The notes under the pieces: generated by a model
What the model was told of the DNA's origin: nothing
What the model saw: only the letters and a program-made list of their open reading frames with translations
The model's database searches: none
Position numbers and translations under genes: made by a program
Shown: positions 30,953 through 64,000 of the stretch, one piece after another
Layout: every line of letters begins with the position of its first letter
Numbering within the stretch: the first letter of the stretch is position 1
DNA from: an uncultured Alphaproteobacteria bacterium
GTDB taxonomy: Bacteria; Pseudomonadota; Alphaproteobacteria; SP197
Length of the DNA: 64,000 nt
Direction: 5' to 3'
NCBI GenBank assembly: GCA_938048755.1
Contig: CALIUG010000107.1
Location: forward strand, 3,994 to 67,993

Positions 30953-31843
30953 ATGCAACGACTGCCCTCTGGCGTTTCTCTCAATGCCGTGCGTGCCTTT
31001 GACGCGGTTGCGCAAAGCGAAAGCATCAAGCTTGCCGCAGAGGCTCTGTTCGTCACGCCGGGTGCGGTCAGCCATCAGCTCAAGCAATTGGAGCAGGCTC
31101 TGGGTGTCCTGCTTGTTTCTCGCAGCAACAACGCCGTGACGCTCACCGACGAGGGCCGGGCGTTTGCAGCCAGCATCGGCCCGGCGCTCGAGACCATTGC
31201 CCAGGCCGCACAGCGGCTGACCCGTGATGCAAACAGTCTGGTCATGCAGGTCTCGGCAACCCTGGCCATGCGCTGGCTGATCCCTCGGTTGGATGGCTTT
31301 CGCGAGCAGAACCCGGCCATCCGTGTGCGTCTGGAGACGTTGAATGAAGTGACGACCCATGCGCAGGACGATGTCGACCTTGCCATCGTTTACACCCGTG
31401 GCACTTCACCCCACCGGCTGGCTCGCCCGCTGTTTGCCGACTGGTGCGGACTCTATAGTACGCGTGAGGTTGCCGAGCGCGTCAACGGCGTATCAGATCT
31501 CGTGACCGTACCACTCATCGCGGCGACACCCGATGACTGGGACTGGCACTTGTGGGCTTCAGCCCATGACGTCGACTTTGACCGGCTCAACCTGCGTCAC
31601 CGCTTCGACATTGATGATGCCGCGATTGCTGCGGCCCAGGCTGGCATGGGTGTGGTGCTCGCGCCGGAACGGTTTGTCCGTCGCGAATGTGAATCGGGCT
31701 CACTCGTTGCGATGCCTGGTACATCGGTGATGCGCTTCGGAACCTATTGGGTGATCCCTTCACCCACGGCAAGACGCCCGGTGGACTGCATGCTCAACTG
31801 GCTCGCCCAGGAGGTCGGCCAGGATGGCCAGCAGAATCTCTAG
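30953..31843 (+). CDS. LysR-family transcriptional regulator
   Basis: N-terminal HTH LNAVRAFDAVAQSESIKLAAEALFVTPGAVSHQLKQLE plus a LysR substrate-binding domain. Confidence 0.85.
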   Translation: MQRLPSGVSLNAVRAFDAVAQSESIKLAAEALFVTPGAVSHQLKQLEQALGVLLVSRSNNAVTLTDEGRAFAASIGPALETIAQAAQRLTRDANSLVMQVSATLAMRWLIPRLDGFREQNPAIRVRLETLNEVTTHAQDDVDLAIVYTRGTSPHRLARPLFADWCGLYSTREVAERVNGVSDLVTVPLIAATPDDWDWHLWASAHDVDFDRLNLRHRFDIDDAAIAAAQAGMGVVLAPERFVRRECESGSLVAMPGTSVMRFGTYWVIPSPTARRPVDCMLNWLAQEVGQDGQQNL

Positions 31844-59551: not shown

Positions 59552-59731
59552 TCGGCGCGGTGCCTTTTGAGGCCGCATCCCAACTGACGCATCGATTCAG
59601 CCCATCCCTTGTCGTAACCCGGCTCGCCCCTCAGATGTCCAGTTCAGGCTTGTTCTGCATGGATAGAGGTGTCTCTGGGACCAACAGACGTTGCGAATCT
59701 GCCACTTTCGACCTGCACTGCCGCAATCTGC

Positions 59732-59844
59732 AGGTGTTCGTGCATGGATCGTCGAATCGAGTTCGACGATGACAAAGAGAACGTGAAAGCGCAGGGTTTT
59801 CAATTACTTGGAGTCATCGTCGAACTCGATTCGACGATCCATGT
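59732..59844. repeat. 30-bp perfect inverted repeat (arms 59732-59762 and 59814-59844, 51-nt spacer); each arm itself contains the palindrome CGTCGAA-N5-TTCGACG
   Basis: GCATGGATCGTCGAATCGAGTTCGACGATGA ... TCATCGTCGAACTCGATTCGACGATCCATGt, seen directly. It lies in a ~650-bp lower-GC noncoding tract between the convergent atpC and LysR genes. Confidence 0.6.
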
Positions 59845-60198
59845 ACTGCCGGTAGAACACGCGATTTCGCTGGACGCAGCCACGATCTCATCGCCCGTCC
59901 AAAGTCTTCGAGGTACCGCGCCAACCACCTGGACAACACGATGTTCCGGGCCGACTTGCTACAACCGCAAATCCGGACTAGGAACAAAAAAGTGAACAAA
60001 ATGCCGTGCCTCTCAACATGCACGAACCGGACGACCTCACCTGATGGTGATCCACTACGCTGCGTAGCAACTACCCGTCCGGAGCGGCCCATAGCCGGTC
60101 GAATTCTACTTTGCATGGGGTTGAACCCCGAAAAAGCGACGAAGCCCTCCCCCAAGTGATGTTTCTCACCCTTTGTCGATCGTGAAATCTAGGATGGT

Positions 60199-61104
60199 TC
60201 AGTCGTTCCGCTCGATTGTTTCCTGTACCTGGTTTTCGATCCAGGTTGTGAAGGCCCGGATCATGGCGGCGGTTGTCGGCTCCTCGACTGTGGTGATCGT
60301 GTATCCCGGCGTGTCGAGCACCAGTTCGGGGAAGGGAGCGGCAAGTCTGCCGGCCTGGCGCGCATCGGCGGCCAGAAACCAGCTCGCCAGGGCGATGCCA
60401 TGGCCTTCTTCGGCCGTCAAAAGACTGTGGTGGCAGTCCGAGAACGTGGGGCCGGAGGTCGGGTCGAGGTTCCGGAGCCCGACTGAAGTAAACCAGGCAT
60501 GCCAGTCCTCGTCGGTCTCGTCGTGGAGCAAGGTCAGTTCGGGAAGCCGTGCGGGTTCATCAAGGCCCTTGACCAGATCGGGGCTGGCATGGGGCGTGAC
60601 GTGATCGCCGGGGATCAGCCATCGGGTGTCCGGCCCGGCATCGGAGCTTCCGCGTTCGATCACGATATCAACTTCGTCGGTGTCCCAGTCGACGTCCCGG
60701 TCTGTACTGTAAAGCCACAGATCGATGTCGGAATGCAGCCTTCGGAAGTTGTGAAGGTGTGGCACCAGCCATCGGCTGGCAAACGCCGGTTCCACGGCGA
60801 CGATCAGAGAGGCCGGATTGCCATAGGCGCGCGCCCGCAGAATGCCGTGGTCCAGGCGTTTCAGGCACTCGCGCACCACGCGCCAGAACTCAAACCCCGC
60901 ATCGGTCAGGGCGACCTTGCGGTGTTCCCGGTGGAACAGGGGCTGGCCCAGCGCTTCTTCCAGCGTCTTGATCTGATGGCTCACGGCCGACTGGGTCAGA
61001 TGCAGTTCTTCGGCGGCAGCCGTGAAGCTCTTCAGCCGCGCTGCTGCTTCGAACCCGCGCAGGGCTCCAAGCGGCAGGTGCGATATGGGTGTGGGCCGCG
61101 CCAA
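60199..61104 (-). CDS. LysR-family transcriptional regulator
   Basis: HTH LGALRGFEAAARLKSFTAAAEELHLTQSAVSHQIKTLE. Starts 3 nt after the BKACE gene stop, so it is probably co-transcribed. Confidence 0.85.
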   Translation of the reverse strand: MARPTPISHLPLGALRGFEAAARLKSFTAAAEELHLTQSAVSHQIKTLEEALGQPLFHREHRKVALTDAGFEFWRVVRECLKRLDHGILRARAYGNPASLIVAVEPAFASRWLVPHLHNFRRLHSDIDLWLYSTDRDVDWDTDEVDIVIERGSSDAGPDTRWLIPGDHVTPHASPDLVKGLDEPARLPELTLLHDETDEDWHAWFTSVGLRNLDPTSGPTFSDCHHSLLTAEEGHGIALASWFLAADARQAGRLAAPFPELVLDTPGYTITTVEEPTTAAMIRAFTTWIENQVQETIERND

Positions 61105-61107
61105 ACG

Positions 61108-62001
61108 TCAGGCAGGTTTGCGCAGGTTGAGCTTCTCACGTGCCTCTGCGGGCGTCAGGACCCGCGCGCCCATACGCTCGATGATACCCACGGCCTTCTC
61201 CACCAGCTGGCCGTTGTTGGCCAGAACGCCGCGGGAAAGATAGAGGTTGTCCTCCAGCCCGACGCGGACATTGCCGCCCAGGGCAACGGACTTTGCCACC
61301 ATCGGCATCTGGTGGCGCGAAATGCCGAAGGAGGACCAGAAGGCGCCTTCTGGCAGGATATCGCGCATGGCCAGCATGACCCTGGTGTCCGTTGGCGCGT
61401 TGTGGCCGATGCCCAAGCAGAGCTGGAACATGGGCGGAGCATCGAACACGCCCTCTTCGACAAGTGTTCTTGCCTGCATGATCGGGCCGACGTCAAACAC
61501 CTCAAGCTCCGGCTTCACGCCGGCAGCCTGCATAAGCTTGGCCATCCTGCGGATCGCCGAGTCGTTGCCCAGATAGGCAACGTCTTCACCAAAGTTGATC
61601 AGGCCCATATCGAGCGTGCAGATCTCTGGCAGCAGGTCCAGGGCATGGGCCACGCGTCCCTCCGGGATGGTGAGGTCGCTGCCTTCCTGCCATTCGCCCG
61701 GCTTGTCGTCGTCGATGATGATGGCGCCGCCATTGCCGCCGGTCAGGTTGATCACGACATCGGTCTCGCTTTCGCGAATGCGCGCCACGACTTCGGCGAA
61801 AAGCTCGGTCTTGAAGGCATTCTGGCCGGTTTCGGGGTCACGGACGTGGCAATGGACGATGGCAGCACCTTCCTTGGCGGCCTGGATGGCGGCTTCGGCG
61901 ATCTGCTTGGGCGTGACGGGCACATGCTCGCTCTTGCCGGCGGTATCGCCACCGCCGGTCACGGCGCAGGTGATCACCACTTCGTTGTTCATCTCGTCCA
62001 T
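61108..62001 (-). CDS. Beta-keto acid cleavage enzyme (BKACE/DUF849; 3-keto-5-aminohexanoate cleavage enzyme family)
   Basis: VVITCAVTGGGDT...HCHVRDPETG...NLTGGNGG are BKACE TIM-barrel Zn-site motifs; 297 aa. Confidence 0.8.
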   Translation of the reverse strand: MDEMNNEVVITCAVTGGGDTAGKSEHVPVTPKQIAEAAIQAAKEGAAIVHCHVRDPETGQNAFKTELFAEVVARIRESETDVVINLTGGNGGAIIIDDDKPGEWQEGSDLTIPEGRVAHALDLLPEICTLDMGLINFGEDVAYLGNDSAIRRMAKLMQAAGVKPELEVFDVGPIMQARTLVEEGVFDAPPMFQLCLGIGHNAPTDTRVMLAMRDILPEGAFWSSFGISRHQMPMVAKSVALGGNVRVGLEDNLYLSRGVLANNGQLVEKAVGIIERMGARVLTPAEAREKLNLRKPA

Positions 62002-62061
62002 CTTGGGCTCCCATCCATCGTGTTCATGTCAGAGCGATTGAGGCCTCTTCGGCACGCCCTG

Positions 62062-63018
62062 TCAATGACGACAGCGTTCTACCATGGCCTTGAAGCTCTC
62101 GCGCAGGATGGGTTCCGGCAGGTCGTGCCCGATCAGCACCAGACGTGTTGTTCGGTTGTTATCGGTCCAGCCTGCAAGGTGTTCCAGTGGGTGGAAGACA
62201 TGCTGTACGCCGTGCACAACCGCGGGCGTATCAGCTCCCGCAAAATTCAGAATACCCTTGAAGCGCAGCAGTCGATCACCGCATTGGGCCATGACTTGTT
62301 CGATCCAGGCGATCACCCGATGGGGTTGCAGGGGAACCGGGCTCTCAAGACTGACCGAGCCGATGGTGGGGTCGTGGCCGTGAACGTCTGGTGTGGCGTG
62401 CATCCAGCGATCCGGCAAAGCGTTTCCTGCGGCCAGCAGGTCGGCGCCATCGATGGTGCCTGCAAGAAGTCTGGCGCCGGGGTTGAGGTCGGCCAGACGT
62501 TGCCGAAGCGTCTGGAGGTCCTGGCTGCTGGCAAGGTCCGTCTTGGTCAGTACCAGGCGGTCTGCCGCTGTGATCTGGTGCAGTGCCTCGTTGTGATGCG
62601 AGAGATGTTCGTGTCCGTGCAAGGCATCCACCACGGTCACGACCCCAGCCACACGACAGGACTGCTTCAGACTATCGTCGGAAAGCAGGGTATGGAGAAC
62701 CGGGGCAGGGTCGGCGAGGCCCGTCGTTTCAATCAGGAGATGGTCAAAGGGGGGAAGCTCACCTGCAAGGACGCGCTCCTGCAGCGCCTTGATCCCCACC
62801 ACGAGTTCGCCGCGAACCTCGCAGCACAGGCATCCGGCACCGACCAGCATGGTTGCGGCATCAACATGTTCGACGAGCAGATGGTCGAGGCCGATCTCGC
62901 CGAACTCGTTGACCAGCACGGCTGTGTTGGCCATGGTGGGATCGCGTACCAGATGATTGATCAGGGTTGTCTTGCCGCTGCCCAGGAACCCGGTGATGAC
63001 GGTGACGGGCAGCATCAC
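62062..63018 (-). CDS. COG0523 (CobW/HypB/UreG-like) metallochaperone GTPase
   Basis: Walker A GFLGSGKTTLIN, metal-binding GCLCCEV (CxCC), His-rich linker HATPDVHGHDP and a C-terminal CobW_C domain. Confidence 0.8.
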   Translation of the reverse strand: MMLPVTVITGFLGSGKTTLINHLVRDPTMANTAVLVNEFGEIGLDHLLVEHVDAATMLVGAGCLCCEVRGELVVGIKALQERVLAGELPPFDHLLIETTGLADPAPVLHTLLSDDSLKQSCRVAGVVTVVDALHGHEHLSHHNEALHQITAADRLVLTKTDLASSQDLQTLRQRLADLNPGARLLAGTIDGADLLAAGNALPDRWMHATPDVHGHDPTIGSVSLESPVPLQPHRVIAWIEQVMAQCGDRLLRFKGILNFAGADTPAVVHGVQHVFHPLEHLAGWTDNNRTTRLVLIGHDLPEPILRESFKAMVERCRH

Positions 63019-63857
63019 GCGGGGTCGATACCCAGCAGGGAGAGCGGACGCTCAAACAGGATGGCTTCGATCGTCTTTTCGGGGATGCGCGGCATGGCAA
63101 GACCCGTGCCCCAATCGTTGAGTCCGCGGAACTCCGCAATCGCGGCCGCGGTCGTGCGCACCGGAAAGTCCGATCCGAACAGCAGACGCTCGGTCACCCG
63201 GTACTCCTCGGCAATCATCAGGCCGTTATAAAGTTGCCAGGGCCGGTGAAAGCGCGCGGAGAGATCAGCAAAGACGTTCTCGTTCTTGCGCATCAGAATG
63301 GCGGTTTGCTCCATATAGGGCTGACCGTAATGGGCCACGATGATCTTGAGGTCGGGGAACGCCATGGCGACCTTGTCGAGCAGGACCGGATCGGAGAACT
63401 CCAGATTGCCGGTATAGGCGCCGCCACAGTGGAACATCACCGGCACCTTGTGGTGACTGGCGATTTCGTAGAGCGGCCAGCTTGCCTTTCCGCGCGGGTC
63501 GACATGCTGATAGGTCGGCGACAGCTTGATACCCTTCAGCCCCAGGTTGAGCGCCCGTTCGAATTCTTCAGGTGCGTCCTCATCATCGGGATGGACCGAG
63601 CAGAAACCCACGGCCCGACCGGGGTAGCGGCCGACATAATCGGCGATGAACTCCGGCGGCGTGTGGTTGCCGGAATGTTTGGGGATCGCGACCACGACAA
63701 ACCGGGAAACCCCGGCTTCGTCGATCATGGCGCCATGCTGCTCGGGAAGGGCCTCTCCGGGTCCCAGAACGCCACGCTGGGACCACAGCGCACGATCTTC
63801 GTCCGTGCGGTGTTCGTGGAGAAAGCAGTGTGTGTGCCAATCGACCAGTTCAGGCAT
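63015..63857 (-). CDS. Amidohydrolase_2 (PF04909) metal-dependent TIM-barrel hydrolase/decarboxylase family protein
   Basis: N-terminal metal-binding VDWHTHCF, plus internal HCGG and SDFP(V) motifs. 4-nt overlap with the COG0523 gene. Confidence 0.7.
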   Translation of the reverse strand: MPELVDWHTHCFLHEHRTDEDRALWSQRGVLGPGEALPEQHGAMIDEAGVSRFVVVAIPKHSGNHTPPEFIADYVGRYPGRAVGFCSVHPDDEDAPEEFERALNLGLKGIKLSPTYQHVDPRGKASWPLYEIASHHKVPVMFHCGGAYTGNLEFSDPVLLDKVAMAFPDLKIIVAHYGQPYMEQTAILMRKNENVFADLSARFHRPWQLYNGLMIAEEYRVTERLLFGSDFPVRTTAAAIAEFRGLNDWGTGLAMPRIPEKTIEAILFERPLSLLGIDPA

Positions 63858-64000
63858 GATTCCTCGCCGTATTTGGGGCTTTTTGTGTGTTTACTGTATC
63901 CTATGGTACGCATTGCGTCCCCAGGCGCTGATCTTGTTCTGATCGCCTGGCTGCACTACATAGAGGTGCAAGAGCGCTGGCGTTGGTTGGTCGCTTCGAA

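Follow-up and report, generated by a model that had tools for sequence, protein, structure and literature searches.

Background

The COG0523 GTPases were split by Haas et al. (2009, PMC2770081) into 15 subgroups on the basis of gene neighbourhood. Apart from those of Nha3 and CobW, the clients of the bacterial members are largely unknown, and client specificity has been attributed to the C-terminal domain (PMC11672702, PMC13001444). In this study, we analysed a 64,000-nucleotide (nt) stretch of contig CALIUG010000107.1 from an uncultured Alphaproteobacteria bacterium (the whole stretch is called the window below). [quoted passage not shown] We found that the conserved unit consists of the amidohydrolase and the GTPase only, and that this pair occurs in at least four unrelated neighbourhoods. 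On balance, we consider it somewhat probable that the GTPase is a dedicated metal-insertion factor for the amidohydrolase, as Nha3 is for nitrile hydratase.

Among the described systems, Nha3 (P44K/P47K) with the Fe-type nitrile hydratase would be the best model for how such a pair works. Like the window GTPase, Nha3 is a COG0523 protein with a gene next to that of a single specific metalloenzyme, constitutes a subgroup by itself, and has no tie to Zur (PMC2770081, PMC11672702). However, the client here would be an amidohydrolase_2 enzyme with a triosephosphate isomerase (TIM) barrel and not the alpha subunit of nitrile hydratase, and no subunit-swapping partner is evident. The neighbours of the window GTPase are Amidohydro_2 and BKACE genes, and since no nitrile hydratase genes lie nearby, the GTPase does not belong to the Nha3 subgroup. 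A second comparison is offered by UreG, a G3E GTPase that is required for the metal loading of urease, which is an enzyme of the amidohydrolase superfamily (PMC2770081). However, UreG belongs to another G3E subfamily and works together with UreD, UreF, and UreE. In addition, the site of urease is binuclear, with Ni and a carbamylated lysine, whereas the alignment places the window enzyme with mononuclear ACMSD-type sites.

Haas et al. list 'metal-dependent hydrolases' as the co-localised neighbours of their subgroup 4 (PMC2770081, supplement 3), which is a precedent for a COG0523 gene found together with Amidohydro_2 proteins. On pSymB of S. meliloti, the gene order is Mo-hydroxylase, SMb20133 (the COG0523 member), permease, UbiX, UbiD, and two Amidohydro_2 (PF04909) genes. 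However, SMb20133 is 32% identical to the window GTPase, which is below the identity of COG0523 proteins from unrelated contexts (37-48%), and its hydrolases are 20-22% identical to the window enzyme. These hydrolases lie about 4 kb away on the other strand within a larger cluster, whereas the window pair is adjacent and overlapping and can stand alone; UbiD, Mo-hydroxylase, and permease genes do not accompany it. The SMb20133 system is thus a separate lineage, and it hints that amidohydrolase_2 enzymes are recurrent partners of COG0523 proteins. The initial annotation of this DNA had called the pairing previously uncharacterised. This is right as far as experiments are concerned, since none has described it and our literature search found no paper on the present amidohydrolase-GTPase pair, but a different COG0523 subgroup with 'metal-dependent hydrolases' had already been catalogued in 2009.

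Conservation of the gene pair

All four genes were found in a near-identical public contig (L001) and in five further public contigs (L002-L006). In L003-L006, the identities to the window were 98% for the amidohydrolase, 88% for the GTPase, 99% for BKACE, and 93% for LysR (range about 88-99%). Because the same genes recur in L002-L006, and the first two of them far more widely, the four-gene arrangement is not due to chance. L007 also contains all four genes in frameshifted form; the frameshifts look like assembly errors because the atp genes of the same contig are broken too. Meanwhile, L008 carries fragments of BKACE and no LysR gene.

Four more distant loci of the same genomic slot carry the pair only, with amidohydrolase and GTPase identities of 77% and 53% (L170), 74% and 54% (L009), 74% and 50% (L175), and 73% and 50% (L096). 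Over all loci, the identity of the GTPase declines from 100% to 44%, and that of the amidohydrolase lies between 68% and 100%. The identities of both partners fall together (98/88, 77/53, 74/54, 73/50, 72/45, 70/44, and 68/45% for amidohydrolase/GTPase), which fits joint inheritance of the pair.

Four gene contexts were distinguished. In the first one (L001-L009, L096, L170, and L175), the pair is located between a ferritin-like gene and the atp operon. In the second one (L011), the order is enoyl-CoA hydratase (ECH), polysaccharide deacetylase, TauD, the pair, and a luciferase-like monooxygenase. The third one (L176-178) consists of a gene for an AAT-domain protein, the pair, and an SGL lactonase-like gene, and genes for TauD and further oxidoreductases are close by. 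In the fourth one (L179), the amidohydrolase gene is convergent with the GTPase gene, which closes an operon of monooxygenase and ATP-binding cassette (ABC) transporter genes. The amidohydrolase is the sole neighbour of the GTPase that is common to all four. Furthermore, start-stop overlaps of 1-4 nt between the two genes are kept in L001, L009, L170, L175, and a Tara record (4 nt, adjacent coordinates); the overlap is usually 4 nt in the pair-only loci of the first context. In addition, at least 16 cluster pairs between the two protein searches, one for the amidohydrolase and the other for the GTPase, match in the length of their longest contig. The coupling of the GTPase gene to the amidohydrolase_2 gene, which had been proposed from the window alone, is therefore borne out by the overlap and by the recurrence in four contexts.

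The result of phylogenetic analysis (neighbour-joining tree, 84 COG0523 sequences) showed that ten amidohydrolase-linked GTPases formed a single clade with a bootstrap value of 92/100. The nearest non-linked relatives of this clade include L030, L040, and L021. The matches listed in the genome scan with the GTPase alignment were all COG0523 genes with 37-48% identity, and they were used as negative controls rather than as an ortholog census. Among these listed matches, the amidohydrolase was found beside one of the 80 other COG0523 loci, namely L011. A marker test for zinc genes near the 80 control loci gave matches to generic ABC ATPases. The initial annotation had warned that different neighbours in most relatives would speak against a dedicated pairing. 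For the amidohydrolase this objection fails, for every inspected member of the GTPase clade adjoins an amidohydrolase ortholog, and this in four contexts. It does apply to BKACE and LysR, which accompany the GTPase in the window lineage only.

Both genes of the pair are under purifying selection: between L001 and L003, the ratio of nonsynonymous to synonymous substitution rates (dN/dS) was 0.08 in the amidohydrolase gene and 0.18 in the GTPase gene.

The COG0523 GTPase

The window GTPase matches PF02492 (cobW, E = 5e-50) and PF07683 (CobW_C, E = 3e-22). Its G-domain motifs are the P-loop GFLGSGKT (residues 9-16), IETTGLADP (ETTG), and LTKTD (TKTD), and the CxCC motif is present as G-C62-L-C64-C65. 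The C-terminal domain contains R251-F-K253-G254 (RxKG), the arginine finger recently described as the sole invariant motif of this domain across the superfamily (PMC13001444). The G-domain, CxCC, and RxKG motifs are invariant in 30 of 30 aligned homologs. By its sequence the protein is a COG0523 member, in agreement with the earlier description as a COG0523 GTPase with a CxCC motif, and GTPase activity and high-affinity metal binding are predicted for it.

To which subgroup the protein is closest was judged from models, structures, and neighbours. All NCBIfam equivalog models scored below their cut-offs (YjiA-like, 202 of 361 bits; CobW TIGR02475, 131 of 332 bits; ZigA NF038288, 114.6 of 600 bits). 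The closest solved structure is that of E. coli YjiA (E = 3.5e-45), and the protein is of YjiA-like size. Besides its low score against the CobW model, the window contains no match to any Rfam family and there are no cob genes adjacent to the GTPase gene. YciC/ZagA, ZigA, YeiR, and YjiA share the two-domain architecture, the CxCC motif, and the RxKG arginine finger with the window protein. However, the window GTPase differs from them in its fixed enzyme neighbour and its scores below the ZigA and YjiA-like cut-offs. In addition, the PETEEY linker motif of ZigA-type proteins is not found in its sequence.

The Zur-regulated subfamily 1 (YciC/ZagA/ZigA) would also be expected to show a Zur box. 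With the consensus of proteobacterial boxes, which may not fit the host, no Zur-like or Fur-like box was found upstream of the pair in 11 loci, and the best match in the window lineage had 6/12 mismatches, equal to the mode of the background. The initial annotation had named a Zur box as the sign of a generic zinc-starvation paralog, and none is detectable.

Three observations concern variation of the GTPase itself. The linker at about residues 200-220 (window about 62360-62420) is short and His-poor in the window lineage (317 aa in total), and it is longer and rich in His and Asp (for example, HHHYNDGHDHGGEDVHDD) in the distant clade members compared (L176, L179, P0080, and P0037), whose length is 340-370 aa. 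Between L001 (10001-10954) and L003 (3138-4091), which correspond to window 62062-63015, the synonymous divergence (dS) of the GTPase gene is 0.36 vs 0.11-0.13 in the neighbouring genes, that is, about threefold. The 3' half of the gene, encoding the C-terminal domain, is 83-85% identical in nucleotide sequence between these two contigs, and the flanking genes are 95-100% identical. This pattern looks like a recombination tract or an allele replacement that is confined to the GTPase gene between the two strains.

The amidohydrolase

No NCBIfam model matches the amidohydrolase. A library clustered at 50% identity contains one representative of the family, whose next relatives reach no more than 48% identity, and this 50%-identity cluster spans Proteobacteria and Chloroflexi. 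A metagenome scan with the amidohydrolase alignment returned mainly distant paralogs, and about 12 loci came from the family itself. In the PLSDB plasmids there was no ortholog of the amidohydrolase (best match 38%), and the GTPase matches there were of the Zn-homeostasis types.

The AlphaFold2 model of the enzyme (mean predicted local distance difference test score 94, predicted template-modelling score 0.93) has the strand order of a TIM barrel. H8-x-H10, H143, H176, and D230 are invariant in 34 homologs, Chloroflexi members included, and in the model they are located after strands 1, 5, 6, and 8, respectively. In human ACMSD, the residue that aligns with H143 is the metal-ligand His (lfvHP). 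To judge from this alignment, the ligand set HxH/His/Asp is of the ACMSD-type, mononuclear amidohydrolase_2 pattern. All top fold matches of the model are amidohydrolase_2 proteins, and the closest solved folds, at 15-20% identity, are LigI-like hydrolases, BB4693, gamma-resorcylate and dihydroxybenzoate decarboxylases, LigW, IDCase, and ACMSD. The fold and the positions of HxH, His, and Asp are thus shared with ACMSD, gamma-resorcylate decarboxylase, LigW, LigI, and BB4693. However, besides the low identity, the family has invariants of its own that those proteins lack, K111 at the end of strand 4 and S-A-R-x-H-R-x-W-Q-L-Y at residues 200-210. For the reaction, a hydrolase, a lactonase, a hydratase, and a decarboxylase are all possible.

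Combined with HxH, His (beta5), His (beta6), and Asp (beta8), the family-specific K111 matches the ligand pattern seen in the carboxylated-lysine binuclear centres of urease, dihydroorotase, and phosphotriesterase. This allows a further, highly improbable reading of the site, in which the family would have such a centre and the COG0523 partner would be a one-protein counterpart of UreDEFG. If this were true, the COG0523 partner would link the hydrolysis of GTP with the carboxylation of the lysine and the loading of the metal, and a binuclear centre would exist in a branch of the superfamily that has so far been held to be mononuclear or metal-free.

Proposed function and alternative explanations

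We propose that the amidohydrolase is the likely client of the GTPase because the GTPase is tightly and repeatedly paired with it. The amidohydrolase would need a divalent metal in its ACMSD-type site (HxH, His, and Asp). In its GTP state, the GTPase would bind the metal at CxCC; its variable C-terminal domain would then dock it onto the newly made apo-amidohydrolase; finally, the RxKG arginine finger would trigger GTP hydrolysis, upon which the metal would be released. This model follows Nha3 with Fe-type nitrile hydratase and ZNG1 with METAP1 (PMC11672702, PMC13001444). The delivered metal is most likely Zn(II), with Fe, Mn, or Co as alternatives. The nearest non-linked relatives of the GTPase (42-44% identical) adjoin aztABC zinc transporters, a Zur-like repressor, or a WD40 gene, and zinc would for this reason be the likeliest metal by descent.

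Several points weigh against a dedicated insertion factor. The contexts come from a small sample of about 11 independent loci, the L179 pair is convergent and thus not co-transcribed, and the Zur consensus may be a poor guide in this host. LigI, which has the same His/Asp pattern, is metal-independent, so the ligand pattern is no proof of metal binding. In addition, there are family members without an adjacent COG0523 gene. These are L171-173 (67% identical; contigs assigned to Thiotrichales, with the gene between two luciferase-like monooxygenases), L090 (63%), L174 (57%; surrounded by unrelated genes and similar to Chloroflexi homologs), and L093, L094, and L100 (44-47%). Since such lone members exist, the GTPase would be an accessory of one amidohydrolase branch and not universally required, or else it is encoded elsewhere in those genomes.

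The lone loci gave two side observations. L171-173 and L179 share a peptide-type ABC transporter (binding protein 89% identical) as well as the amidohydrolase family, and a COG0523 gene follows the transporter in L179 only. We also considered a GTPase hidden after the L171 transporter and rejected it, as the trailing open reading frame (ORF) is unrelated. Meanwhile, genes for TauD and luciferase-like monooxygenases are recurrent neighbours of the amidohydrolase (L011, L171, and L176).

The alternative explanations are each weakened by the fact that the amidohydrolase alone is constant across contexts. One of them is that the GTPase serves another metalloenzyme of the pathway, for instance, by bringing Fe(II) to TauD-type dioxygenases or to a ferritin-like di-iron protein, or that it is a regulatory or structural partner of the amidohydrolase and not a chaperone. 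In its favour, L011 and L176 have TauD genes close to the pair, L171 has TauD close to its lone amidohydrolase, the pair of the syntenic slot is flanked divergently by a ferritin-like gene, and Nha3 shows that a COG0523 protein can handle Fe (PMC11672702). However, no TauD and no ferritin-like gene is found within 7 kb in L179, of these candidates the amidohydrolase alone is present in every context, and it is with the amidohydrolase gene that the GTPase gene has its start-stop overlap. We therefore consider this explanation unlikely.

According to another explanation, the GTPase is a general COG0523 protein of zinc limitation, similar to YciC, ZigA, or YeiR, which has no dedicated client and owes its position to inherited synteny. 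The zinc-related genes beside the nearest non-linked relatives would fit such a role, and most of the pair loci are in one syntenic slot. However, three further, unrelated contexts contain the pair as well, the GTPases linked to the amidohydrolase are a monophyletic group, and the start-stop overlap is kept. Together with the ZigA score (115 of 600 bits) and the lack of PETEEY and of a Zur-like box in the scanned loci, this makes a general zinc-limitation role quite unlikely.

The pair is useful in several respects. It is a compact test case, a two-gene overlapping module that occurs in several contexts, shows no sign of Zur control, and has a small soluble putative client. With this module, client selection by the variable C-terminal domain and the identity of the delivered metal could be studied. 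The pair also flags a well-conserved amidohydrolase family without an assigned function. We rate the importance as moderate: the pair supplies a clean candidate client for a class of bacterial proteins with few known ones, but the impact is limited, as the concept of a COG0523 protein with a neighbouring client is established, the related co-localisation was catalogued in 2009, and the support here is computational.

BKACE, the LysR regulator, and regulation of the cluster

The results of the locus comparison showed that BKACE and LysR are restricted to the window lineage (L001-L007, with fragments in L008) and are absent from L009, L096, L170, L175, L011, L176, and L179. They are thus a lineage-specific addition downstream of the pair and were acquired together. 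The stretch between the GTPase gene and atpC (window 59552-62061) is variable in other loci too. Here it holds BKACE and LysR; L170 has an IS1595-family transposase fragment and a duplicated piece of atpC, L175 and L096 have small ORFs without annotation, and in L009 the stretch is almost empty. The stretch appears to be an insertion hotspot.

BKACE keeps H50-C-H52 and the glutamate of GLEDN, which are conserved against its best solved relatives, 3c6c and 9zsc. We take these residues to be the Zn ligands, as in Kce. All NCBIfam BKACE equivalogs scored below cut-off. The closest annotated homologs of BKACE (56-58% identical) were found in two carnitine clusters, one with L-carnitine dehydrogenase and thioesterase and the other with carnitinyl-CoA dehydratase and 3-hydroxyacyl-CoA dehydrogenase, and both have a GlxA-type regulator. 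A carnitine-specific BKACE, the dehydrocarnitine cleavage enzyme, is established, and the closest homologs of the window enzyme, like it, lie beside L-carnitine dehydrogenase, thioesterase, and a GlxA/CdhR-type regulator (PMC9321204). However, the window regulator is LysR/GcvA-like and not GlxA, and no homologs of L-carnitine dehydrogenase or of the thioesterase were found in the 64-kb window. The LysR protein scored 260.9 bits against the GcvA subfamily model NF008352 (cut-off 288). Its second-best NCBIfam match is a choline-sulfate regulator (E = 4e-51), which fits a quaternary-amine theme only loosely.

The inverted repeat CCAGGCG-N16-CGCCTGG is located upstream of the amidohydrolase gene (Table 1). 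Its arms are identical in L001, L003, and L007, and the spacer differs at four positions. In L008, where the LysR gene is missing, the arms are degraded, and loci without LysR do not have the repeat. We regard the repeat as a candidate operator for LysR, or alternatively as a stem in the 5' untranslated region. As an operator, it would connect the appended genes with the pair's promoter. A strict sigma-70 consensus scan of the upstream region gave no match, and no terminator-like site was found on the minus strand inside the cluster. In the window lineage, the insertion of BKACE and the GcvA-like LysR downstream of the pair produced a four-gene unit, which is probably transcribed from the amidohydrolase promoter and is possibly under LysR control via this repeat.

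The initial annotation had taken the four genes for a small catabolic operon and both BKACE and the amidohydrolase for plausible metal clients. As BKACE and LysR are absent from the pair loci outside the window lineage, both the sisters in the same slot and the three other contexts, such an operon is not a conserved one, and BKACE is the less plausible client of the two. The corresponding explanation, that the GTPase supplies Zn to BKACE, with or without the amidohydrolase as a further client, within one conserved operon, can point to the retained H-x-H and Glu motifs, to the same strand and the short gap to the GTPase gene without a terminator-like site, and to the candidate operator upstream of the whole cluster, but it is very unlikely, as the seven loci named above lack BKACE and LysR, the GTPase clade is far older than the BKACE insertion, and no COG0523 gene is annotated in the two carnitine clusters.

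Organisation of the gene cluster

The features of the cluster are listed in Table 1. The four minus-strand ORFs and their spacings, as first described, were all confirmed by the sequence and by Pfam. The span of 61108-63857 that had been given for the cluster is right for three genes and omits LysR, although the accompanying text named this gene.

Table 1 Features of the amidohydrolase-GTPase gene cluster and its upstream region in the window
Feature	Position in the window	Strand	Description
Amidohydro_2 enzyme	63015-63857	minus	280 aa; PF04909, E = 8e-38, 131 bits (cut-off 26.4)
COG0523 G3E GTPase	62062-63015 (ATG; 317 aa) or 62062-63018 (GTG; 318 aa)	minus	cobW and CobW_C domains
BKACE	61108-62001	minus	297 aa; PF05853, E = 4e-92, 309 bits
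GcvA-like LysR-family regulator	60199-61104	minus	301 aa; TTG start; HTH_1 and LysR_substrate
Inverted repeat CCAGGCG-N16-CGCCTGG	63921-63950	no strand	candidate operator or stem; 64-93 nt upstream of the amidohydrolase start
Upstream/promoter region of the cluster	63858-64000	minus	cut by the window end

The stop codon of the amidohydrolase gene (TGA, 63017-63015) overlaps the start of the GTPase gene as read from the sequence. The extent of the overlap depends on the start codon: the 4 nt first reported (GTGA) hold if the gene starts with GTG at 63018, but the overlap is 1 nt (TGATG) with ATG at 63015, which is the start in public gene calls (317 aa). The GTPase stop (62062) and the BKACE ATG (62001) are separated by 60 nt. 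The BKACE stop (61108) and the LysR TTG (61104) are 3 nt apart, and both genes are in one reading frame. At window 61102-61110, BKACE and LysR are parted by the TGA stop and one codon (TGA CGT TTG). The TTG is the sole canonical LysR start ahead of the helix-turn-helix, and public gene calls agree with it.

The window ends 143 nt upstream of the amidohydrolase gene. In L001 (9005-9158), the full upstream intergenic region is 154 nt long and extends up to the divergent ferritin-like gene. The ferritin-like protein (L001 8180-9004, minus; start about 12 nt past window position 64000) has 274 aa with weak matches to Rubrerythrin and FA_desaturase_2. The protein is 100% identical in L001 and L003. 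At each locus of the syntenic slot, its gene lies divergently beside the pair, but it is absent from the other three contexts. We considered it as a real partner of the pair and rejected it on account of this absence from three of the four contexts.

The flanks of the cluster are housekeeping genes, with NUDIX, ctpA, an M23 peptidase, gpmI, and rsfS on one side and the convergent atp operon on the other side. Within the 64-kb window, there is no second COG0523 gene and no gene for carnitine dehydrogenase, TauD, or a luciferase-like monooxygenase. The Rfam and tRNA scans of the window found no RNA families or tRNA genes, and with no Rfam match the window contains no riboswitch.

In addition, two minor features were found in the window. 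In the convergent intergenic region between LysR and atpC (59740-59846), there is a 49-nt inverted repeat with 84% complementarity and 9 nt between its arms. It holds two copies of the palindrome ATCGTCGAA-N5-TTCGACGAT, and it could act as a terminator in both directions or represent a small repeat element. At 30968-31333, there is another LysR-type helix-turn-helix region, which is 39% identical over 124 aa to the regulator of the cluster.

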